A stretch of DNA of 64,000 nt, from assembly GCA_050950765.1 (NCBI GenBank), contig JBMNIF010000002.1, positions 1,120,001-1,184,000 on the forward strand, written 5' to 3'. Shown here in pieces: positions 30,413-45,015 of the stretch. How positions within the stretch are numbered: position 1 is the stretch's first letter; each line of letters opens with the position of its first letter. A program made the translations under genes and the position numbers. The notes under the pieces were generated by a model that worked only from the letters and a program-made list of their open reading frames with translations, did no database searches and was not told the origin of the DNA. The DNA is from Bdellovibrionota bacterium (GTDB lineage: Bacteria; Bdellovibrionota_C; UBA2361; JAAYZI01).

Positions 30413-30920
30413 GTTGGTTTTAATAGGATTTATGGGGGCAGGGAAAAGTGCTGCCGGAAGGTCTTTAGCACGTGAGTTTGCGTGGAAGTTTTTTGATACG
30501 GACACCTTAGCTTTAGTGCTTTCAGGTGAAGAGTCTATCAATGATATCTTTGATAAGTATGGAGAGCAACATTTCAGAGATTTAGAGGTGCGAGCAGGCA
30601 CAGCGTTGCAGCAGGAAACAAAAGCTATTATCTCTACGGGGGGCGGCTTTGTAATGAATACACAGGCTATGCAAGCCTTAAAATCGCCTAATACCTGCGT
30701 TTTATATATTCGAGTATCATTTGAAGAGTTGCAGATCAGGTTACGTGGTAATACGACCCGTCCCCTTTTTCGCGATGTTGATAAGGCGAGAGAGTTATAT
30801 CAGAGCAGACTTGAAACTTATCAAAATTACGCTGATCTGATAGTAGATGCTGATGGATTCACACCCTCTGAAGCTTCTGATAAGATAGTGACGGCGCTAA
30901 AAGAGGGGAAATTTATATGA
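30399..30920 (+). CDS. aroK: Shikimate kinase
   Basis: LIGFMGAGKS P-loop, GE..FR.LE, STGGG, RPL. Confidence 0.93.
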   Translation: MKLDKLVLIGFMGAGKSAAGRSLAREFAWKFFDTDTLALVLSGEESINDIFDKYGEQHFRDLEVRAGTALQQETKAIISTGGGFVMNTQAMQALKSPNTCVLYIRVSFEELQIRLRGNTTRPLFRDVDKARELYQSRLETYQNYADLIVDADGFTPSEASDKIVTALKEGKFI

Positions 30921-31100
30921 GTAATGAAACGAAATTTATCGAAGGTTATGTTAGCGCTGACTCTATTTTGAAGTTTTTTACTTCAGGGAAATTTGTATGA
31001 GTAATGAAACGAAAACTATCGGAGTTGTATTAGCGCTGACTCTATTTTGAAGTTTTTTACTTCAAGGAAATTTGTATGAATAATGGAATAAAATCTATCT
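30905..31100 (+). repeat. ~80-bp tandem duplication of the aroK/aroE junction
   Basis: ggaaattt(a/g)tATGa(g/a)taatg three times, with ATG at 30917, 30997 and 31076. Confidence 0.9.
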
Positions 31101-31906
31101 GCATGGTAATAGGCGATCCGGTTTCGCATAGTTTGGGACCACTTGTTCATAATGCTGCTTATAAAGCGTTGGGGATAGATGATAAGTTTGTTTATACCGC
31201 TGCACGTGTACAGCAAGGAGATCTCTCCGATGCGATGAAAGGTGTGCGAGTTTTAGGAATTCGATCTCTTAGTTGTACCTTGCCTCTAAAACACCTTGTC
31301 TTGCAATACCTTGATGAAATTGACGAAGAGGCTAAGGAGATTGGAGCAGTAAATACGGTTATTTTAGAAGATGGTAAGTTAAAAGGTTATAATACCGACA
31401 TCGATGGGGTGGTGCAGCCGTTTTTAAAGCGAACGACGTTAAGGGATAAAAAAGTTTTGGTGTTGGGAGCGGGTGGAGCGGCACGTTCAGCAGTTTTTGG
31501 ATTTTTTAAGGAAGGAGCTAAAGTTACTTTAACGAATCGTAGCTTTGAGAAGGGTGAGAAATTAGCGACAGAGATCGGTGTTGATTTTTTTGCATGGGAA
31601 GAGCGTGCAGCACGATCTCCCGAGTATGATCTAATTTTTAATGCCACCTCACTCGGCTTTGATGGCAATACCCTCTCTGCTTTGGATAAAAGCGCCTTTA
31701 GAAAAGGGCAGATCGTTTCTGATGCTGTTTATAACCCTTATCAGACACCTTTCTTACAAAATGCAGCTAGTGCTGGTGCTGAAATTATTTATGGGACAGA
31801 GATGTTTATCGAACAGGCTGCTAAGCAGATACTTTTATATGCTGGGCTTGAGCCTCCTAGGGGTGTAATGGAGCAAGCCTTAATGGAGGTGTTATGCAAA
31901 AGATAA
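31076..31906 (+). CDS. aroE: Shikimate dehydrogenase
   Basis: IGDPVSHSL.P, T.PLK, GAVNT, GYNTD, GAGGAAR, NR, NATS.G. Confidence 0.94.
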   Translation: MNNGIKSICMVIGDPVSHSLGPLVHNAAYKALGIDDKFVYTAARVQQGDLSDAMKGVRVLGIRSLSCTLPLKHLVLQYLDEIDEEAKEIGAVNTVILEDGKLKGYNTDIDGVVQPFLKRTTLRDKKVLVLGAGGAARSAVFGFFKEGAKVTLTNRSFEKGEKLATEIGVDFFAWEERAARSPEYDLIFNATSLGFDGNTLSALDKSAFRKGQIVSDAVYNPYQTPFLQNAASAGAEIIYGTEMFIEQAAKQILLYAGLEPPRGVMEQALMEVLCKR

Positions 31907-35991: not shown

Positions 35992-36230
35992 GACCTTCCT
36001 GATCTTGAAACAGGAAAGGTGTGAAGATTAGGTGTGAAGATAATCTTAGTATGCCACTAATGGAGGAAACTAATAAGCTGTTAAATAATAAGGTCGGAAG
36101 TGATCAATTCTTCCCGTTCTATCCTGATTACTGATTAAAAAAGAGGTAGCCTTATTAAGACAGTAAAAAATTTTGTAGATACACCCCCTCTCAAAAAATT
36201 TAATATCAGAAAATTAGAGGATACTTTTAT

Positions 36231-37073
36231 TTATTGATCAAAGTTCTCTTTTGTATAAATTACACTTAAGACACACAAGATAAACGGCACGATCCAGATA
36301 GTTGGTATACAAATGGTAGCCCAGAAATAGGTTATTTGTACTATTTCTAAAGTTGATCCTGAAGATGGCATAAAGTAGGAGGGCATTATTAAGAGAAGAG
36401 AAGCTAAAAGCCCTAATAAAATTGCCGTTACTATTAAGGTAATATAACTTAGGGCATGTTTTAAAATTACTTTAAGGCAGATTAAGCTTCTGTTTACTAT
36501 ATTTTTAAAGTCTTTGATGTCATTCATGAAGATATTGATGAATGTGTACACTATGATAATTCCCAAAAGACACACAATCGACACTAGGACGAAAGCTTTG
36601 ACTGAAGAAAGTGAGTAGGGAATTGATTTATATATTAGTAGGTAATATGGGATGCACACCACGAAAAACATCGGAGAATGGGTGATATATTTTTCAAGCT
36701 CTTCAAAAAAATCATCATAGTTTGTCGTACCTTTCTTTATGACTTCAATATTTTTAATTAAGATAAAAGCTAAGGTTAGTGCGGCAAAAATTGGAAGTAA
36801 GATAAAATATATAGAATAGAATGTCATAAATAGTTTATTCTCTTCAACGTCTGTTTTTAAAAGAGAATTAAGAGCATCAACTGTTAAAAAGGCTGCTATG
36901 GTTAAGACTAGGTATACCGTTATCCCTATAAAACAGATCCTCCAGATGCCGAGTTTGACACCTTTGGTTTGGGTTACTTTCCAAGCTTCAGACAAGACAT
37001 CTCTTACACGCCAACCTTCGTTACTGTTGGTTTCAACAGGAAGTTCTTGATTGTTTTGATCTGGCATTGACAT
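36231..37073 (-). CDS. Hypothetical multi-pass membrane protein
   Basis: 280 aa with ~6 hydrophobic segments; WRVRDVLSEAW N-terminal motif; AT-rich. Confidence 0.75.
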   Translation of the reverse strand: MSMPDQNNQELPVETNSNEGWRVRDVLSEAWKVTQTKGVKLGIWRICFIGITVYLVLTIAAFLTVDALNSLLKTDVEENKLFMTFYSIYFILLPIFAALTLAFILIKNIEVIKKGTTNYDDFFEELEKYITHSPMFFVVCIPYYLLIYKSIPYSLSSVKAFVLVSIVCLLGIIIVYTFINIFMNDIKDFKNIVNRSLICLKVILKHALSYITLIVTAILLGLLASLLLIMPSYFMPSSGSTLEIVQITYFWATICIPTIWIVPFILCVLSVIYTKENFDQ

Positions 37074-37588
37074 AATTACTATCTTTAATTTTAAGTTTTT
37101 ATACCCTCAGTATATCGATATAAGGTCTTATATGGAGATAATAATCTAAGCGATTATGAAAAAGGCTGAAAGTAGTTGTTTTTTGATTAAAAGCGGAGAT
37201 ATTACTGTGCAAAAGATCTTTTCAATTATCTGATTTTACCCATAGAGGTTCGTTCGGAAAAAAATGAGAATGCTACAAAAATTATTATTAAAAAATAGGG
37301 TATATTTAAAATGAGCGTAAATTTAAGCTTGCAAAAAGATAGATTCTCTAAGAAGAAGGAGATTGATAAAGATAAGCTTAATAATAAAAGTAAAAAGGAG
37401 AAGATAAGAGCTTTAGATAAGTAGTATTTACTAACCTCAATTCCATTCGGTGTTTTTTAAAAAATATGAGCCTTAAAGTTTTCACCTCAAGGCTCATAAC
37501 GTTCTAGAAGGGCGACGCGCAACACCTACCATAGTTGTCGGAGATCTTGCCGTCGCTTGTTTCCTTCTATTAGCCGCGTGCGTAGATA

Positions 37589-37927
37589 CTAAGCCTGTTC
37601 CGCTGATCCTACGGAGGCGTGGAAAAGACCTTTGTATAAACTACGCTTACTCAAATGCTGGACCACTTTGTTCGCAAACGACAACAGCAAAGGATAATCT
37701 GCGTTTGGCACCATAAATACTATGGTGTCGTATCCCTTCATGGTGTCATGCCCTTCCTCCCAGAATGTAGTCTGGTACGACGGATTCGTTTTTCTCCAAC
37801 AGACATCGATAGCGATTTTTAAGAGAAACAATTTGAAACGAGATTCATCACTAGGGCACACGAATGCGATAGGTTGGCAAGAATTATCCCCGTTATATGC
37901 GAGGGGATCTTCTTTTGCTTGGCACAC
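37589..37927 (-). CDS. Cassette ORF, hypothetical (112 aa)
   Basis: AAGGAG-6 nt-GTG at 37927; open to 37589; alternative ATG at 37960. Confidence 0.6.
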   Translation of the reverse strand: MCQAKEDPLAYNGDNSCQPIAFVCPSDESRFKLFLLKIAIDVCWRKTNPSYQTTFWEEGHDTMKGYDTIVFMVPNADYPLLLSFANKVVQHLSKRSLYKGLFHASVGSAEQA

Positions 37928-37987
37928 TTTATTCTCCTTTAGTGCGGGTGATTGACTCATTCTGGATATCGAACATTCGAATATCAC

Positions 37988-38044
37988 CCGATGAGTCGTC
38001 TCTATCAAGTTGTGAAAAAGAACTAAACAGAAACGACTCATCGG
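37988..38044 (-). promoter_or_regulatory. Conserved 24-bp leader hairpin (copy 1)
   Basis: ccgatgagtcgtttctgtttagtt-loop-aacttgatagagacgactcatcgg on the minus strand. Confidence 0.8.
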
Positions 38045-38581
38045 AGAAGGAGTCCCTTTTGGAAAAAAAGGAGGATGCCGAGAAAAGCCCTACCACTTTT
38101 AAACGTCAAATGGATATACTAAAAAAATCCTTTATAAAAACCGATCTTCTACCCATTACCAAGCTCTTATCTTATAAGATGCGATTTTATACGAGACTTT
38201 ATTTTTAGGCAAAAAAATAGTGAAGATCCGATCTTATAATTTAAAAAGCTTAAAATTTAAGGTCTTATATTTAAAACGAGCGTAAATTTAAGCTTGCAAA
38301 AAGATAGATTCTCTAAGAAGAAGTTCTAAGATAAAGAAAGCCCAAGCTTAATAATAAAAGTAAAAAGGAGAAGATAAGAGCAACGAATGGACACTAAAGA
38401 ACCGAAGCGAAAAACCTCTGTATAGCATCCATCCGTTGTTCTTAAGCATAAGGTCTAAAGTGCTCCCTTGAAAATTTCAAAGGGCTTCAGGGCTTACAAC
38501 GTTCTAGGAACGACGTGCGACGGTACCGAGAAGGCGTAGCAGGTCATGCCAACACTTAGCGGTTAGTAATTGCCGTTGTCT

Positions 38582-38989
38582 TCAGGTATTTGGTTCTTGA
38601 TACCAATCGTCTTCAAATATTGGTTCCGGATTGTAATGCCACTTAAACGTGAGATAGGAGGTAATAACTTCTAAAGAGGTCACTATCTTTTCCACAACCG
38701 AAGTGAATTTTTCGAGGAACTCTTCTTCAGTTGTGGCACCAAGATCGTAGACAGTTACCGTGATCACTATAAGGTCATTTCTCCTTGAGGGGTCGCTATT
38801 TATCGAGTGGTGACATTCCATTTTGAAAGTTTCCGAAAAGCCCGACGAAGAATATTCCCCCCAGTAATCGCAGATAGAATTTTTGAGTTGATCCATTCTG
38901 GATTCCCATTCGAGATTAGTTTCGTCGGGTGATCCGCGATTAATTTCGAGGTTGGCTTGGTATTTCAAGCCTCCAAGGCTTTCCTCCAT
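38582..38989 (-). CDS. Cassette ORF, hypothetical acidic protein (135 aa)
   Basis: AGGAG RBS before ATG 38989 (MEESLGG...). Confidence 0.7.
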   Translation of the reverse strand: MEESLGGLKYQANLEINRGSPDETNLEWESRMDQLKNSICDYWGEYSSSGFSETFKMECHHSINSDPSRRNDLIVITVTVYDLGATTEEEFLEKFTSVVEKIVTSLEVITSYLTFKWHYNPEPIFEDDWYQEPNT

Positions 38990-39051
38990 GACGGTTTCTC
39001 CTATAATGAAAAAGTTAAACTCATTCTGGATATCGAACGTTCGAATATCAC

Positions 39052-39106
39052 CCGATGAGTCGTCTCTATCAAGTTGAAAAAGAACTAAACAGAAACGACT
39101 CATCGG
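39052..39106 (-). promoter_or_regulatory. Conserved leader hairpin (copy 2)
   Basis: Same arms as copy 1; 2-nt deletion at the loop. Confidence 0.8.
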
Positions 39107-39622
39107 AGAAGGAGTCCCTTTTGGAAAAAAAGGAGGATGCCGAGAAAAGCCCTATCGTTTTTAAACGTCAAATGGATACACTAAAAAAAATCCTTTGTAA
39201 AAACCGATCTTCTACCCATTACCAAGCTCTTATCTTATGGTACGTGAGTCTATACGAGACTTTATTTTTGAGGCAACACGTTTAGGCAAAAAAATAGTGA
39301 AGATCCGATCTTAATAATTTAAAAAGCTTAAAATTTAGGGTCTTATATTTAAAACGAGCGTAAATTTAAGCTTGCAAAAAGATAGATTCTCTAAGAATTA
39401 GGAGATTGATAAAGATAAGCTTAATAATAAAAGTAAAAAGGAGAAGATAAGAGCAACGAATGGACACTAAAGAACCGAAGCGAAAAACCTCTGTATAGCA
39501 TCCATCCGTTGTTCTTAAGCATAAGCCCTAAAGTGCCCCTTGAAAATTTCAAGGGCTTCAGGGCTTACAACGTTCTAGGAACAACGTGCAACGTTGCCGA
39601 GAAGGCGTAGCAGCACGCTAGC

Positions 39623-40240
39623 TTATGCACAGTCTTCGTCTTCTGGAGCGGGAATATCGTAAGAAGATCCTTGAATCCCTACGCCCGTACCGTCATCAAA
39701 CGATATTGTTAAGGAGCCACCGCCGAGCTGTTTGGCGAGAGATTCCCCAAGGAAGTCGAGTTCTTCTAGGGATATGCCGTAACCTTTTGGGAGACGGAAT
39801 TCAACCGTTACATAGCGATAGTTTTCATCTGCGTAGACTTCAACGACAACCTGTTCGCACTTTGAGAATTTTTCGCTCAGTTCTCCTCCCACAAGGAAGG
39901 CGAGCTCTTCCGACGTTTTCTCATTGACGGAGGGACAATCTCTTAAGGTAATACAGTATTGATTGTACCCCACTCCCATTATGCAAAGATCGCGCGATTG
40001 CTTTGGAAACGAGTCCCCTTTAGAAGAGAAGAATTTCTTCTTGTCGGTGTAAATTCTTACCTCAATCTTGAGAGGGAAAGTTTCTCCGTTTACGTTAATC
40101 TCGAAAAGGAAATCGAAAACGGAAACTGTGGATTCGATAAGGTTCCCGCACCTATCAGGTTCACGTTCAATAACGGTCCTTTCCTTCCATCCTTTCAACG
40201 AGATTTGCTGATAGCAGCGTTTATCCAATTTATCAGGCAT
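39623..40240 (-). CDS. Cassette ORF, hypothetical acidic protein (205 aa)
   Basis: AAGGAGG RBS before ATG 40240; no recognisable motif. Confidence 0.75.
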   Translation of the reverse strand: MPDKLDKRCYQQISLKGWKERTVIEREPDRCGNLIESTVSVFDFLFEINVNGETFPLKIEVRIYTDKKKFFSSKGDSFPKQSRDLCIMGVGYNQYCITLRDCPSVNEKTSEELAFLVGGELSEKFSKCEQVVVEVYADENYRYVTVEFRLPKGYGISLEELDFLGESLAKQLGGGSLTISFDDGTGVGIQGSSYDIPAPEDEDCA

Positions 40241-40327
40241 TATAGTTATAGCCTCCTTGTATCACAGTTGTGAACACCGACTCGCTTTCGGATACGTAAT
40301 GATTAAGATATCACGTGATATCACCCT

Positions 40328-40384
40328 CCGATGAGTCGTCTCTATCAAGTTGTGAAAAAGAACTAAACAGAAACGACTCATCGG
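40328..40384 (-). promoter_or_regulatory. Conserved leader hairpin (copy 3)
   Basis: Same arms; the stem extends at the base by ct/ag. Confidence 0.8.
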
Positions 40385-40939
40385 AGAAGGAGTCCCTTTT
40401 GGAAAAAAAGGAGGACGAGCCCTATCGCTTTTAAACGTCAAATGGATACACTAAAAAAAATCCTTTATAAAAACCGATCTTCTACCCATTACCAAGCTCT
40501 TATCTTATAACTTATAAGTTTACACGATGGTTTATTTCTAAGCAAAAAAATCCACTCTTTTGACGTCTTTAAAAGCAAAAAATAATTAAAACCTTAGATA
40601 CTTTAGGACGGTAAGATGGTCATGAATAAACGTTTAAAATCACACCGTTGAAGAAGATAAGTTTATCACTTATTAAGGTAAGATGCCGATATAACAAGAG
40701 TTTGAGTGTAGATCTACGATATTCTTCCCCTCTGTTAAGGTATCTTAGCAAGAAGGTGCGGCGACGGCGTGGTCGTCTACGGAGAGAAGGAAAGATGAAA
40801 GTTCTTTTATTAGTAGTTTTATTGGGAGTGCAGTGCGATACGAAGGGATGCGCTTAATTTATCACTTACCACCACATTTTTTATAAAATACCCTTATTAT
40901 TTAATGTAGTAGGATCTTTCTTAGCAGGATTTTTTACCT

Positions 40940-41044
40940 CCTTTAGCACCTCTTCGATCTGGAAGGTGCAAAGTATGCAGTATTTACACTGATGGGAGCA
41001 GCCACGACCTTTAACACCTCTTCGATCTGGAAGGTGTAAAGTAT
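40940..41044. repeat. Two 37-nt hairpin-forming direct repeats with a 31-nt unique spacer
   Basis: ccttta(g/a)cacctcttcgatctggaaggtg(c/t)aaagtat at 40940 and 41008. Confidence 0.85.
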
Positions 41045-41254
41045 CTAATGGATACAGAGTATATGAAATTATGCGCTACCGTTTTGTTGCAAAATATAAG
41101 TGGCATCGGTGCTCCTCTCTGCGGGATAAGTTGTGCACCCTTTCTGTTAAGGTGATCTACAATACAGATAAGATATCATCCTTTTAGTAGAAAACTTGAT
41201 TTTTTAGTAAAAAAACGTACCCTGATTTTATTCTTAGAAACGGTAAGGAGGGGT

Positions 41255-42403
41255 GTGGATAAAGGGAATAATACTGCTCTGCAAAGTGGACAAAAGATAA
41301 TAGGGGGAGAAGATGACGCTTTTCTATCAGAGCAGATTATTACATACATCGGAAATAAGCGGGCGTTACTCGTCTTTATCGGAGAAGCGCTTGACGTTGT
41401 AAGGAAAGAGTTAAAAAAAGAGAAGATAGATCTCGTTGATGCTTTTTCCGGTTCGGGAGTGGTCTCAAGGTATTTTAAACAGTTTAGTGCAAACTTATTC
41501 AGTAACGATTTAGAAGCTTACTGTCAGACGATAAACCGCTGCTACTTAACAAATAAAGAAGATCTGGATTTCGAAGCTTTACATGCTCATTACGATGCGA
41601 TTACTGATAAACTTGAAAGACTGCCTCTAAAAAAAGGCTTTATTTCAGAGTTGTATGCACCGCAAAATGATGCGGCTATCAAAGAAAATGAGAGAGTTTT
41701 CTTTACCTGTCGTAATGCAAACTATATCGACACCTGTCGACAATATCTGGAAGATGTGCCGCAGCCGTATAAGGGTTTACTCCTTGCGCCTTTACTGTAT
41801 GAGGCATCTGTTCATAACAATACCTCTGGAGTTTTTAAAGGATTTTATAAAAACTCAAAAACGGGGATCGGTCAGTACGGAGGGAATGCACAAAACGCTT
41901 TAAGTAGAATAAAAAAAGAGATTAAGTTACCGCTACCGATCTTCAGTAACTTTAATTGTGCAGTGCATATACTTAAGGAAGATGCTGCCAAGCTTCCGCA
42001 TATTTTGCCCGCAACAGACCTCGTATATCTAGATCCGCCGTATAATCAACACCCTTACGGCTCAAACTATTTTATGCTTAATCTGATTAATTCTTATCAG
42101 AGACCGAAAAATATCAGTCGAGTTTCAGGCATTCCAAAAAAATGGAATAGATCAAGATATAATAAAAAAGCGGAATCCGCAGAAGCCTTAGCAACACTTT
42201 GTAACGAATTAAAAACAAAATATCTTCTGATATCATTTAATTCAGAAGGGTTTGTTAGCCTTGATGAGATGAAAAAAATCCTCAAAAAACAGGGCAAAGT
42301 AACTATCTTAGAAACTAAATACAACACCTTTAGAGGTTCTAGAAATCTTAGAGGGCGTAACCCGTATGTTAAAGAATATCTGTATCTCGTGAAAAAATAT
42401 TGA
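41255..42403 (+). CDS. DNA adenine methyltransferase (D12/alpha class), no neighbouring endonuclease
   Basis: YIGNKR, DAFSGSGVV (motif I), YLDPPY (motif IV), LISFN. Confidence 0.92.
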   Translation: MDKGNNTALQSGQKIIGGEDDAFLSEQIITYIGNKRALLVFIGEALDVVRKELKKEKIDLVDAFSGSGVVSRYFKQFSANLFSNDLEAYCQTINRCYLTNKEDLDFEALHAHYDAITDKLERLPLKKGFISELYAPQNDAAIKENERVFFTCRNANYIDTCRQYLEDVPQPYKGLLLAPLLYEASVHNNTSGVFKGFYKNSKTGIGQYGGNAQNALSRIKKEIKLPLPIFSNFNCAVHILKEDAAKLPHILPATDLVYLDPPYNQHPYGSNYFMLNLINSYQRPKNISRVSGIPKKWNRSRYNKKAESAEALATLCNELKTKYLLISFNSEGFVSLDEMKKILKKQGKVTILETKYNTFRGSRNLRGRNPYVKEYLYLVKKY

Positions 42404-42494
42404 GGTTGCTACCTTCCTAGCTTTCTAGCCGAGACTCTTTTTAAAAAGTAAGCGATTAGCCTTCCATCTTTTTGACGTGCTTATAGTTTCAAAA

Positions 42495-42630
42495 TTCCTA
42501 GCTTAGGTGAGGGTGAGGTTTCTATTTAGGGAGGGACAAGGTTTCTAGCTTAGGTGAGGATAAAGTTTCTACTTAGGGGAGGATAAAGTTTCTAAGTTAG
42601 GTGAGGGAGGGTAAAACTTTTAGTTGAGGG
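42495..42630. repeat. Degenerate ~23-bp tandem repeat, ~5-6 copies
   Basis: tttctagcttaggtgaggataaag-like units between convergent genes. Confidence 0.7.
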
Positions 42631-44472: not shown

Positions 44473-44651
44473 GAAAGAAGGGTAAGAAATTTTTATGGGT
44501 GCAACTTAAGTGAGAAAGTGGAGGGTTAAAGGTTAGAAAAAATAAAAAACCTAATTCTGGAACAGTGTTAGTATATAAAACCGTTTCAAAATAATAGATA
44601 TTTATGCTAAGAATACAAAGTTGCGCTATCCGCTTGGCTCTCTCCACACTT

Positions 44652-44903
44652 TTTACCTCTCCAAGGTAGAAAAGCGAGGGTGGCTTTTAGCTTCTTTGAC
44701 CTCACCAAGGTAAGAAAACAAGGGTGGCTTTTAGCTTCTTTGTCCTCACCAAGGTAAGAAAACAAGGGTGGCTTTTAGCTTCTTTGTCCTCACCAAGGTA
44801 GGAAAGCGAGGGTAATTTTATGCTCCCTTTTACCTCACCAAGGTAAGAAAACAAGGGTGGCTTTTAGCTTCTTTGTCCTCATCAAGGTGAAAAAACAGGG
44901 GTG
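44652..44903. repeat. 44-bp tandem repeat, ~5.5 copies
   Basis: ccaaggtaagaaaacaagggtggcttttagcttctttgtcctca-like units at 44661, 44705, 44749, 44793 and 44838, partial at 44882. Confidence 0.92.
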
Positions 44904-45015
44904 ACGCTTAAAGAAGCTTAGTCATTTTTCCTTTAGCGAGATGGTGTTTTTTTTTGAATGGTTCATGATTTTTAAGAAGATAGAGGTATAAAAACGAGGT
45001 GAAATAACTTGCGTT

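Follow-up and report, generated by a model that had tools for sequence, protein, structure and literature searches.

Strand-preferring hairpins in a common leader of orphan gene cassettes from a Bdellovibrionota bacterium

Introduction

Integron attC sites carry two core sites at the ends of their hairpins, R'' (RYYYAAC) and R' (GTTRRRY). Phage morons are inserted between other genes as self-contained units, in which a small accessory gene has its own promoter and terminator. In T4-type phages, the stem-loops of PeSL are described as overlapping the -35 and -10 boxes or lying between them, before ORFans (PMC2839356). Within transcripts, RNase III unmasks ribosome binding sites (adhE, lambda cIII) and leaves stabilising hairpins, as outlined in PMC5371410. 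According to PMC2649163, the hairpin in transcripts of Correia repeat-enclosed elements is bound by RNase III and either cleaved or protected, which alters the expression of the adjacent gene.

The locus considered here lies in a window of 64,000 nucleotides from the genome of a Bdellovibrionota bacterium. Three tandem cassettes occupy its minus strand, each with a long hairpin (hp1), a shorter one (hp2), a Shine-Dalgarno sequence (SD) and an orphan ORF. These cassettes recall each of the systems above in part, and their hairpins are compared with them below.

Results

Cassette architecture

Each cassette reads, in order, promoter-like site P1, leader, hp1, hp2, SD, orphan ORF and two long 3' hairpins or a terminator (Table 1); the repeat unit measures about 640 bp. 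The 5' leader is roughly 250 nt long, with hp1 about 190 nt downstream of P1, the best-conserved promoter-like site, and hp2 beginning 2-6 nt downstream of hp1, before the SD. The 3' tail is conserved; its fold contains numerous G-U pairs, and some of its changes are compensatory. IR-L, at the leader start, is the inverse of IR-R, at the tail end, over 10-15 bp in all six cassettes (five in this genome and one in a second genome, G004). Predicted homologues of P1 in the six cassette copies score 7-10 of 12; promoter-like sites as a whole are not enriched in the region (5 vs 6.9 +/- 2.6 in shuffles).

Table 1. Positions of the cassette features within the window.
Feature	Position	Strand	Basis or remark
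P1 of cassette 1, predicted sigma-70-like promoter site TTGCCT-17-TAAAAT	38184..38212	-	Promoter scan; homologues co-positioned in 6/6 cassette copies
IR-L of cassette 1, AAGATAAGAGCTTGG	38159..38173	-	Leader start, ~10 nt past the P1 -10 hexamer
hp1 of cassette 1, 24-bp hairpin, 9-nt loop	37988..38044	-	Folding, covariation, strand comparison
hp2 of cassette 1, 5+3 bp hairpin, bulged U	37965..37985	-	Folding; RNA contigs extend to 37980-37983
Cassette 1 ORF, 112 aa, orphan	37589..37927	-	GTG start after AAAGGAG; no family; RNA contigs of 3 runs
Cassette 1 intrinsic terminator, 15-bp stem + T run	37459..37498	-	Terminator scan; RNA contig stops at 37451 with adapter letters
IR-R of cassette 1, then T-rich run	37401..37415	-	Inverted-repeat comparison
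P1 of cassette 2, TTGCCT-18-TAGACT	39247..39276	-	Leader alignment; 14-nt insertion restores TTGCCT at working distance
IR-L of cassette 2	39222..39236	-	Inverted-repeat comparison
hp1 of cassette 2, loop shorter by 2 nt	39052..39106	-	Folding, alignment
hp2 of cassette 2	39029..39049	-	Folding; RNA contigs extend to 39037-39043
Cassette 2 ORF, 135 aa, orphan	38582..38989	-	Single-sequence model: generic ferredoxin-like fold, low confidence
Cassette 2 tail (3' UTR): small hairpin, long hairpins T1 and T2, IR-R (38371-38385), U-rich run	38371..38545	-	
P1 of cassette 3, TTGCTT-17-TAAACT	40517..40545	-	Read by eye, not in promoter-scan list; hexamers identical in G004
IR-L of cassette 3	40492..40506	-	Inverted-repeat comparison
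hp1 of cassette 3, base extended by <=3 further pairs	40328..40384	-	Folding
hp2 of cassette 3, GATATCACGTGATATC, 6-bp hairpin	40307..40322	-	Folding; identical hp2 in G004 copy
Cassette 3 ORF, 205 aa, orphan	39623..40240	-	No relative but itself; no structural neighbour with TM>=0.5
Cassette 3 tail with hairpins T1, T2; IR-R at 39444-39458	39444..39616	-	

None of the six cassette ORFs has a family in Pfam, NCBIfam, PADLOC or PHROGs. The model of the cassette 2 product (pLDDT 65.8) has no PDB match at E<=0.001. The ORF of c4, a further cassette of this genome, has one relative, at 57% identity, and repeat-like matches in giant proteins. The ORFs adjoining the array in the window encode a D12 methyltransferase, a histidine kinase and a membrane protein, and the array neighbours are shikimate-pathway, two-component and glycosyltransferase genes. 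For the chorismate synthase, the best relatives reach 64% identity at most and come from MAGs whose labels are mixed. There is no phage signal: PHROGs gave no meaningful match and viral_contigs gave none. When G004 is compared with G005 as a candidate empty site, the cassette lies within a stretch of about 5.4 kb that measures about 0.7 kb in G005. The precise cassette ends are therefore unreadable from this pair.

Folding and strand preference

The hp1 arms on the minus strand, CCGATGAGTCGTTTCTGTTTAGTT and AACTTGATAGAGACGACTCATCGG, align over 24 positions, 20 of them Watson-Crick, three G-U (positions 13, 17 and 19) and one U-U (position 20). A preliminary description of the locus had reported this arm pairing, with G-U at three of the four non-Watson-Crick positions and a sole indel at the loop of copy 2. 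The sequence reads as described at 37988-38044, 39052-39106 and 40328-40384, and in the alignment of the three copies the indel amounts to 2 nt in the copy 2 loop. Its second palindrome held in part: GATATCACGTGATATC in copy 3 is a perfect 16-mer, whereas those of copies 1 and 2 are imperfect hairpins of 5+3 bp with a bulged U.

Strand-specific folding, the central claim of that description, was borne out when both strands of copies 1-3 were folded as RNA. The minus and plus strands of hp1+hp2 reach -38.9 vs -32.7 kcal/mol in copy 1, -39.3 vs -31.7 in copy 2 and -44.3 vs -37.3 in copy 3, and the minus strand is thus the more stable by 6-8 kcal/mol. Its z-scores are -7.0, -6.9 and -7.9. No shuffle out of 200 matched the stability of any of the six folds (three copies, two strands); both strands outfold their shuffles because the hp1 element is an inverted repeat. 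For hp1 alone, the coding/opposite RNA energies of the six cassette copies are -33.6/-27.1, -34.0/-26.1, -34.0/-27.5, -35.1/-27.4, -36.5/-26.9 and -36.6/-27.0 kcal/mol, a coding-strand advantage of 6.5-9.6 kcal/mol that becomes 1.1-2.3 kcal/mol under DNA parameters.

Non-Watson-Crick positions are distributed accordingly in the cassettes, where hp1 has eight G-U positions vs one A-C position; over all eight known copies of the element the counts are 27 G-U cells vs four A-C cells. Two distant copies, in genomes G006 and G007, have A-C and A-G mismatches in hp1, and their opposite strand equals or exceeds the coding strand in stability (coding vs opposite strand, -21.1 vs -22.4 and -6.8 vs -16.1 kcal/mol). 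hp2 occurs as five unrelated sequences across the copies, every one of which folds. In c5, the fifth copy of this genome, it reaches -15.6 vs -2.9 kcal/mol with three U-G pairs; between G006 and G007 the hp2 stems differ and the loop GGUCG is common to both.

Copies and covariation

Five of the eight copies are in this genome (the three tandem cassettes plus c4 and c5) and one each is in the related genomes G004, G006 and G007, so that the element is present in 4 of the class's 124 genomes. The G004 copy is a full cassette, and those of G006 and G007 are leaders only. A same-strand start codon follows the element by 59-103 nt in all eight. Only one other genome, 85% complete, belongs to the family, and no match occurs in it. 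An exact hp1-core pattern had no matches in genome_contigs or metagenome_contigs, collections that may omit this genome and its near kin, and a looser IUPAC pattern had none in viral_contigs. The looser pattern found 15 loci in metagenome_contigs, none of which passes model R2 at E<=0.01; they are therefore regarded as chance matches. A scan of the window against Rfam, as the preliminary description had proposed, gave no match at the gathering score; relaxing the threshold to E<=5 brought up nothing but miRNA-precursor and lncRNA models, all with E>=1.

Among the five copies of this genome, 99.2% of the 118 hp1 cells are paired, with four pairs changed on both sides and three on one side only. 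Shuffles reach the observed values in 2-4 of 500 cases on four of five measures; further pair types, reached by 378 of 500, are not above the chance level. With all eight copies, 92.9% of 198 cells are paired and five pairs (8 cells) are changed on both sides, values that are reached by 0, 5, 0 and 1 of 500 shuffles, further pair types again not exceeding the shuffles (473 of 500); these statistics are thin, because there are only eight copies, three of them nearly identical. Controls with slid positions pair at 28-45% (eight copies). Among the five copies of this genome no change affects the upper half of hp1 (TCTGTTTAGT ... ACTTGATAGA), non-Watson-Crick pairs included, and the lower half co-varies. 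In G004 three upper-half positions are changed, and U-U is replaced by U-A.

The compensatory changes in hp1, the excess of G-U over A-C and the retention of hp2 structure with five different sequences support the view that hp1 and hp2 are under selection to fold as a single strand, the coding one, as had been proposed for the locus from its sequence.

RNA and DNA contigs

The three cassette ORFs are covered by contigs from three metatranscriptome runs of three studies; the adjacent genes have no RNA contig, though a DNA run covers them. RNA contigs extend to 37980-37983 and 39037-39043, that is, through hp2 and past the start predicted for an internal promoter (see Discussion). Their stops, at 37975-37983, 39028-39043 and 40300, are explained by k=31 assembly-graph branching where cassettes or strains converge, and hence give a lower bound only for the 5' end. 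In none of the three runs does an RNA contig lie on 37991-38352, on 39077-39438 or from 40344 onward, which leaves hp1 and the upstream leader uncovered. This hole over hp1 could reflect processing or an untranscribed hp1, or could have no meaning, and it is not counted as evidence.

Metatranscriptome contigs in which other ORFs stand agree with the cassettes in their 5' flanks up to 37947 and 38998, and in their 3' flanks up to 37573 and 38590. These limits place the exchange points at the SD and directly behind the stop codon, at least 40 nt from hp1.

The DNA contigs also include one joint from 40352 to 38125, which goes back 2228 and has 31 letters on its short side; a circle, a duplication and a repeat artefact are all possible.

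Candidate functions set aside

Several other readings of the hairpins were considered and rejected. hp1 is not among the four terminator-like sites of the scan, and it is followed by GGGTGATATT, with no T run. CUGAUGAG in c5 suggested a hammerhead, but this motif is fully paired, with no three-way junction and no Rfam match. GATATC, considered in hp2 as a target of the D12 methyltransferase, shows no genome-wide avoidance (1523 observed vs 1444 expected), and the site is missing in c5, G006 and G007. A leader peptide read from (A/T)TGGGTAGAAGA varies in frame and length among copies, and its changes have no third-position bias.

Discussion

A processed leader

The reading that we favour, as plausible if short of probable, is that hp1 and hp2 are RNA hairpins in the 5' UTR, of about 250 nt, of an exchangeable cassette, and that hp1 is a candidate processing or stability site of the RNase III type. 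The preliminary description had allowed for either an RNA structure or an ssDNA recombination hairpin. RNA fits better: the difference between the strands is pronounced under RNA parameters and slight under DNA parameters, the element stands in every case downstream of a promoter-like site and upstream of the SD of an ORF on the same strand, and RNA contigs include hp2. An attC-like ssDNA form found no support.

Under this reading transcription would start at P1, directly upstream of IR-L. The hp1 helix of 24-25 bp, about two turns of dsRNA, would be cleaved by RNase III or by another factor specific for double strands, and the cut would remove a pyrimidine-rich upstream leader able to pair with the SD. 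hp2 would remain as a protective hairpin close to the new 5' end. The recognition part may be the invariant upper half of hp1 with its two G-U pairs and U-U mismatch, while the lower half would need pairing only.

Parts of this scheme can be compared with predictions. In the RNAalifold prediction the SD is paired with CCUCCUUUU, which lies upstream of hp1, although such masking by pyrimidine runs is cheaply predicted and displays little covariation. Predicted opening of the SD rises after an hp1 cut in all eight copies, very slightly in three. RNase III acts on mostly continuous dsRNA of about 20 bp or more, and hp1 of the six cassette copies offers 24-25 pairs, with energies of -33.6 to -36.6 kcal/mol. 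Its cuts are staggered inside the helix; the RNA contigs, being assembled, show no ends of that kind. A gene for RNase III (PF14622 above cut-off) is present in all four carrier genomes; since the enzyme is nearly universal, this counts for little.

Alternative readings

hp1 might instead be an operator, with a trans-acting RNA-binding protein or small RNA reading the distorted upper helix (G-U, U-G, U-U) as a joint switch of translation or decay, and RNase III would then be unnecessary. The constancy of the upper half beside a co-varying lower half, together with the presence of hp1 in all cassettes, as expected of regulon members, would suit such a role. We nevertheless consider it unlikely, given that no candidate factor gene adjoins the cassettes and that the upper-half changes in G004 include the U-U itself.

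An improbable composite of the PeSL type would make hp1 a terminator or insulator against upstream read-through, place a second promoter over the hairpins and let the upstream leader act as DNA. For cassettes 1 and 2 the promoter scan does list TTGATA (-35, in the hp1 3' arm)-17-GATATT (-10, in the hp2 5' arm), an arrangement reminiscent of the phage stem-loops, and G007 has TTGACA at the -35 place at the cost of one base pair; the leader, moreover, is without any RNA contig. The 17-nt spacer, however, is found in only two of the six cassette copies (19-20 nt in c3, c4 and c5), the -35 is lost in G004, and G006 has no -10 at a usable distance. RNA contigs of two runs include 37980-37983, 7-10 nt upstream of the start predicted for this internal promoter, and the lack of a T run and absence from the terminator-like list argue against termination at hp1.

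It is very unlikely that hp1 is an ssDNA recombination site (of the integron attC, IS200/IS605 or REP hairpin type) that mobilises the cassettes. Unrelated ORFs do sit between common flanks, between two families these flanks agree at 80-84% identity and the conserved genes at about 64%, the G-T pairs give one strand an advantage, and this genome has six copies of a Y1-transposase-like gene. Yet the only Phage_integrase (PF00589) matches in this genome, at C2:471421, C2:1062602 and C3:312627, are all at least 90 kb from any cassette, and G004 carries a cassette but has no Y1_Tnp match. The hp1 arms start with CCGATGAG and end with CTCATCGG, with no RYYYAAC or GTTRRRY box, the strand difference is only about 1-2 kcal/mol with DNA parameters, and the swap junctions at the SD and just past the stop codon avoid the hairpin. 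The attC comparison made in the preliminary description is thus not upheld.

That hp1 is a functionless relic of a palindromic insertion, copied with the leader, is hardly credible: three of the eight copies are recent duplicates and those of G006 and G007 are decaying, but compensatory changes affect five hp1 pairs, hp2 was exchanged for other sequences with folding retained, and position and orientation are constant in all eight copies.

Significance

In two bacterial families the same frame surrounds no fewer than six unrelated ORFs, and it is found around other ORFs known only from metatranscriptomes; it therefore behaves as a natural plug-in expression unit. Should the processed-leader reading hold, the element would be a cis-acting RNA not described before and outside any Rfam family, and the cassettes would exemplify a modular expression and exchange of orphan genes in bacteria, a mode so far documented mainly for T4-type phages. 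The frame would also offer a handle on the origin and spread of orphan genes in bioreactor communities. The claim is a modest one, for an element that is rare (4 of the 124 genomes of the class) and a mechanism that is inferred.

Comparison with known systems

Phage morons share the promoter-gene-terminator plan of the cassettes; they are not known to have a structured leader and tail in common, and the units here are in a bacterial chromosome.

Integron attC arrays are similar in that small unknown ORFs, seemingly promoter-less, stand in tandem between repeats that fold as strand-biased imperfect hairpins. In the cassettes, by contrast, intI, attI and R''/R' boxes are missing, each unit of the repeat of about 640 bp has its own promoter-like site and terminator, and hp1 is 5' of the ORF inside the leader with the swap junctions away from it. 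No integrase or attI was found near the array, nor were R''/R' sites or cassette boundaries in the hairpin.

Correia repeat-enclosed elements of Neisseria are likewise inverted-repeat elements and can supply a promoter (PMC2649163). As characterised in that source they are dispersed, many-copy MITEs with terminal repeats, whereas hp1 occurs only inside the leader. Its five copies in this genome are all so placed, conservation extends beyond IR-L and IR-R, and no flanking direct repeats were found.

The RNase III-processed leaders of E. coli adhE, lambda cIII and the T7 early RNAs, as presented in PMC5371410, also place a long imperfect dsRNA hairpin in the 5' UTR. The likeness extends to an SD predicted to be occluded and freed by cleavage, with a hairpin at the new 5' end (PMC5371410). 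They differ from the cassettes in having no sequence relation to them, in that cleavage of hp1 is only a proposed step, and in that here one leader serves many unrelated genes.

PeSL of T4-type phages is, in the accounts of PMC2839356 and PMC4122927, a repeated noncoding module that joins a sigma-70-like promoter to a stable stem-loop with G-T pairs. It stands immediately before small ORFans, and its copies exchange unrelated genes with one another. A predicted P1, stem-loops and orphan ORFs are all present here; a promoter overlapping the stem-loop is good in only two of the six cassette copies. Against the short intergenic motif that these accounts give for PeSL, the module here is chromosomal and, with its 250-nt leader and conserved 3' tail, about 640 bp long. 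hp1 follows P1, the promoter-like site that is best conserved, at about 190 nt, and the promoter and terminator activities here are predictions. PeSL lies in the hyperplastic regions of T4-type phages, whereas the neighbours here are bacterial metabolic and signalling genes, with no viral matches. It is a speculative and rather doubtful extension of this comparison, drawn by analogy, that leader and tail together form a chromosomal counterpart of PeSL. In such an adaptor frame, shared horizontally, the UTRs would give captured orphan genes transcription, processing and stability, homology or a hairpin-directed activity would swap the ORFs between strains and families, and hp1 would be the handle of a dedicated factor.

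Paired hairpins in three tandem units

On the minus strand of the window, each of three tandem units carries one 24-bp hairpin, hp1, and a shorter second hairpin, hp2, located 2-6 nt downstream of it. The hairpins of the preliminary description are real. As described there, hp1 pairs over 24 positions in all three copies (20 Watson-Crick), three of the four other positions are G-U (the fourth is U-U), and the alignment has a single 2-nt indel, inside the copy 2 loop. The second palindrome is indeed a perfect 16-mer, GATATCACGTGATATC, in copy 3; copies 1 and 2 read GATATTCGAA(T/C)GTTCGATATC as given, but they fold as 5+3 bp with a bulged U. The proposed two-strand folding of hp1 plus hp2 as RNA gave lower energies for the minus strand in every window copy (-38.9, -39.3 and -44.3 kcal/mol in copies 1, 2 and 3, versus -32.7, -31.7 and -37.3 kcal/mol on the plus strand), and for every fold on both strands none of 200 shuffles was equally stable.

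Coordinates of cassette features and neighbouring sequences. Positions are those of the window unless a contig (C1-C5) of its source genome, G000, is named.
Feature	Positions	Strand	Remarks
hp1, copy 1	37988-38044	minus	
hp1, copy 2	39052-39106	minus	
hp1, copy 3	40328-40384	minus	
hp2, copy 1	37965-37985	minus	
hp2, copy 2	39029-39049	minus	
hp2, copy 3	40307-40322	minus	
Cassette 1 ORF	37927-37589	minus	112 aa
Cassette 2 ORF	38989-38582	minus	135 aa
Cassette 3 ORF	40240-39623	minus	205 aa
Cassette 1 tail, textbook terminator	37498-37459	minus	
IR-R / IR-L pairs	37401-37415 / 38159-38173; 38371-38385 / 39222-39236; 39444-39458 / 40492-40506		also at loci L004, L006, L021
Upstream (A/T)TGGGTAGAAGA	38146-38160		and homologous leader places
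Flanks with foreign ORF sequence between	37552-37573 + 37947-37981; 38526-38590 + 38998-39037		metatranscriptome contigs
Further cassette	C2:1227766-1227900	minus	before orphan ORF of 302 aa
Further cassette	C3:375447-375562	plus	before orphan ORF of 129 aa
Y1-like frames	C2:7795, C2:892855, C2:1186722, C3:211452, C5:8074, C1:184936		none adjoins a cassette
Repeat D5	30865-31102		
Repeat D13	40940-41044		
Methyltransferase gene	41255-42403		
Repeat D12	42490-42583		
Repeat D1	44650-44910		

Architecture of the cassettes

Each hairpin pair lies within a conserved non-coding frame that encloses an unrelated ORF. The order on the minus strand is a T-rich stretch, a promoter-like site (P1), the motif IR-L, the leader with hp1 and hp2, a Shine-Dalgarno (SD) site, the ORF, a tail, the inverted motif IR-R and a T-rich run. 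P1 is sigma-70-like (TTGC[C/T]T, 17-18 nt, TA[A/G]A[A/C]T), and IR-L (AAGATAAGAGCTTGG) follows about 10 nt past it. The leader measures 246-266 nt from IR-L to the start codon, and the tail, which has long hairpins, 157-211 nt. A promoter scan listed P1 for cassette 1 only; the homologous positions in the other copies score 7-10 of 12, and a 14-nt insertion in copy 2 restores TTGCCT at working distance. Because the region has no excess of promoter-like sites over shuffles, the case for P1 is one of positional conservation, not of the scan.

In all six cassettes IR-L, AAGATAAGAGC(TTGG), opens the leader and its inverse (10-15 bp) closes the tail before the T-rich run. Both sides have changed together (C>T with G>A) in c4, one of two further cassettes of G000; the pairing includes two G-U pairs in the other, c5, and one C-A in the related genome G004. 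Through these motifs the mRNA could pair its 5' end with its 3' end, but a portion of IR-R has a local partner too, in tail hairpin T2. The tail hairpins are G-U-rich on the coding strand, with some compensatory changes. A conserved (A/T)TGGGTAGAAGA in the leader is a potential start of a short upstream ORF (copies 1-3 read MGRRSVFIKDFF), whose frame would traverse hp1 in the related genomes G006 and G007; this candidate was rejected, as its frame and length vary between copies.

The six cassette ORFs have no family match in Pfam, NCBIfam, PADLOC or PHROGs, and their products are small orphan proteins, apparently cytoplasmic. The 205-aa protein has no relative in a search of 5.8 billion clusters and no structural neighbour at TM >= 0.5, and for the 302-aa protein a single relative was found, 57% identical. 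Modelled from its single sequence (pLDDT 65.8), the 135-aa protein has its secondary-structure elements in the order beta-alpha-beta-beta-alpha-beta; the top-ranking PDB entries for this model are ferredoxin-like folds of a generic kind, with E > 0.001.

A divergent gene for a D12-class N6-adenine DNA methyltransferase adjoins the cassette array. The hp2 of five copies includes GATATC; this site is not depleted in the genome, and thus no link was found between hp2 and the methyltransferase. Short direct repeats also occur here: a 37-mer present twice, 68 bp apart, upstream of the array (family D13) and a tandem 47-mer after the methyltransferase gene (family D12). Family D1 forms at least five 44-45-bp units (two per 84-nt family copy) between the genes for a histidine kinase and the first glycosyltransferase. 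Three tandem 79-80-bp units (family D5) lie just upstream of a shikimate dehydrogenase gene, each ending in GGGAAATTTGTATGAGTAATGAAACGAAA-like text that looks like an SD and start codon.

Distribution of the leader

The 2.64-Mb, five-contig G000 genome has two more cassettes, both diverged. One taxonomic check of G000, on chorismate synthase, gave relatives with mixed labels, none above 64% identity. A leader covariance model, a check proposed in the preliminary description, was searched over the 91 genomes of the order and found homologues in G004, G006 and G007 besides G000. G004 gave the only strong match (94 bits): its cassette is complete, has a different ORF, of 188 aa, and shares hp2 with copy 3 and the tail with the G000 cassettes. 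The weaker matches, in G006 and G007, both from one genus, are shorter leaders (GGGTAGAAGAT ... hp1 ... hp2) ahead of a nucleoside 2-deoxyribosyltransferase-like gene (PF15891). When the 124 genomes of the class were searched with a model restricted to hp1, meaningful scores were again confined to these four genomes, and pattern scans of public genome, metagenome and viral collections revealed no extra copies.

Evidence for selection on the fold

Among the five G000 copies of hp1, 99.2% of 118 pair cells are standard pairs; four pairs carry changes in both partners, and three in just one. On four of five measures the observed value was reached by 2 to 4 of 500 shuffles, and on the fifth, further pair types, by 378. 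In the full set of eight, 92.9% of 198 cells pair, and both partners have changed in five pairs (eight cells). Shuffles reach these pairing and two-sided-change values 0 to 5 times in 500, slid controls pair at 28-45%, and further pair types are again not above shuffles (473 of 500). The lower half of the helix co-varies; the upper half is invariant across the five G000 copies, G-U, U-G and U-U positions included. In G004, the U-U has become U-A and two new U-G pairs are present. Five unrelated sequences serve as hp2; all fold, and no hp2 has an A-C cell. The hp2 of c5 has three U-G pairs (-15.6 vs -2.9 kcal/mol), and those of G006 and G007 differ in their stems and have the loop GGUCG in common. 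The two-sided changes in hp1, the excess of G-U and the five folding hp2 sequences support the earlier claim of selection on a single-stranded fold, and these alignments make a good case, for so few sequences, for selection on the coding-strand fold.

The eight hp1 copies contain 27 G-U versus 4 A-C cells; counted as positions, there are 9 versus 3, or 8 versus 1 in the six cassette copies (c1-c5 and G004).

RNA folding energies of hp1 (kcal/mol); c1-c3 are the window copies.
Copy	Coding strand	Opposite strand
c1	-33.6	-27.1
c2	-34.0	-26.1
c3	-34.0	-27.5
c4	-35.1	-27.4
c5	-36.5	-26.9
G004	-36.6	-27.0
G006	-21.1	-22.4
G007	-6.8	-16.1

In the six cassette copies the coding strand is favoured by 6.5-9.6 kcal/mol with RNA parameters and by only 1.1-2.3 kcal/mol with DNA parameters. 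Such a preference is therefore to be expected if wobble pairs are selected in RNA; it would gain far less from G-T mismatches in DNA. G006 and G007 are exceptions: their hp1 contains mismatches of the A-C and A-G kinds, and its coding-strand fold is not the more stable one. Predicted hp2 folding supports the same reading, and RNA is favoured over DNA as the level of the selected structure.

Transcription and exchange of ORFs

The stretch, or part of it, is contained in 20 public runs from 16 studies, six of which are RNA libraries (bioreactor or biogas metatranscriptomes). Contigs of three RNA runs, from three studies, and of one DNA run were compared with the window. RNA contigs span the three ORFs and the tail starts, and extend to 37980-37983 and 39037-39043, through hp2; hp2 is thus transcribed. 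The upstream stops coincide with k=31 path merging of different cassettes and are therefore only lower bounds for the 5' end. The hole over hp1 and the upstream leader, where the three RNA runs have no contig, proves nothing. One RNA contig stops with adapter letters at 37451, just beyond the cassette 1 terminator. The flanking genes (36000-37447, 40344-41400) have no RNA contig; coverage there in the DNA run is about 20-128-fold.

Four RNA contigs have other sequence inside the same flanks. In run X12 (records 10 and 12), 389 and 370 other letters replace 373 and 407, and run X14 (records 23 and 25) has the same kind of replacement. The shared 5' flanks end at 37947, just upstream of the cassette 1 SD, and at 38998, inside that of cassette 2; the 3' flanks end at 37573 and 38590, at most about 15 nt from the stop codon. 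Therefore the exchanged unit is the ORF, with or without its SD, and the exchange points are at least 40 nt from hp1. The unknown ORF sequences between these flanks indicate that the community has more cassette contents than G000.

Between G000 and G004, leader and tail share 80-84% identity, versus about 64% for conserved genes of the two families, an excess suggestive of horizontal spread or of a strongly constrained frame. The G004 cassette is inside a stretch of about 5.4 kb, the counterpart of which in its congener G005 is about 0.7 kb. Adjoining this cassette is a GNAT acetyltransferase gene (L145 8385-9218) with DNA 91-95% identical to G000:C3:203110-203469 and 205297-205774, pieces about 1.8 kb apart; the pattern resembles that of a recent transfer, the G000 copy having gained an insertion. 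One contig of the DNA run, X1, joins 40352 to 38125, going back 2228 bases from the cassette 3 leader to the cassette 1 leader. This joint may be a circle or tandem-duplication signature or, with 31 letters on one side, a repeat artefact.

Possible function and relation to known systems

On this evidence, hp1 and hp2 are best read as RNA structures within a long 5' UTR; whatever goes beyond a transcribed structure under selection, we infer. hp1 spans two turns of imperfect double-stranded RNA, and each of the four carrier genomes encodes RNase III; a plausible role for hp1 is that of a site where an RNase III-type enzyme would process the RNA or affect its stability. In the RNAalifold prediction the SD is paired with a CCUCCUUUU run that lies upstream of hp1, and predicted SD openness rises after a cut in hp1 in all eight copies, though little in three. 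Such a cut would leave hp2 near the new 5' end. Among the examples in PMC5371410, RNase III frees the ribosome binding site of adhE and lambda cIII, and its cleavages can leave stabilising hairpins.

Instead, a trans-acting factor may read the invariant upper helix of hp1. The hairpins may also act as a terminator plus promoter like those of PeSL cassettes, in which, in the stem-loops described in PMC2839356, the -35 and -10 boxes are overlapped; TTGATA-17-GATATT is present in cassettes 1 and 2 and TTGACA in G007, but the spacer is 19-20 nt in three copies, the -35 is lost in G004, and RNA is found upstream of the predicted start. Transcripts that begin 7 nt after GATATT would lack bases, 7-10 nt farther upstream, that the contigs include; that site cannot be the sole source. 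The preliminary description had allowed for RNA or a single-stranded DNA recombination hairpin; the strand gap upholds the former, and an attC-like or IS200-like hairpin fails on several counts, as the gap is small with DNA parameters, no recombinase is nearby, G004 has no Y1 transposase, R boxes are absent and the exchange junctions lie away from the hairpin. Elsewhere in G000, six near-identical open frames of 332-350 aa with a partial Y1 transposase domain (32 bits) are probably an insertion sequence.

The Rfam scan suggested in the preliminary description gave no family match. No description of the element turned up in open-access text on such cassettes and on the organism group, a limited search that does not prove absence. 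We rate the element as a structured cis-acting leader in a modular expression cassette. Among described systems, the PeSL cassette of T4-type phages comes closest; in mechanism, the nearest models are leaders processed by RNase III and the Correia elements of Neisseria (PMC2649163).
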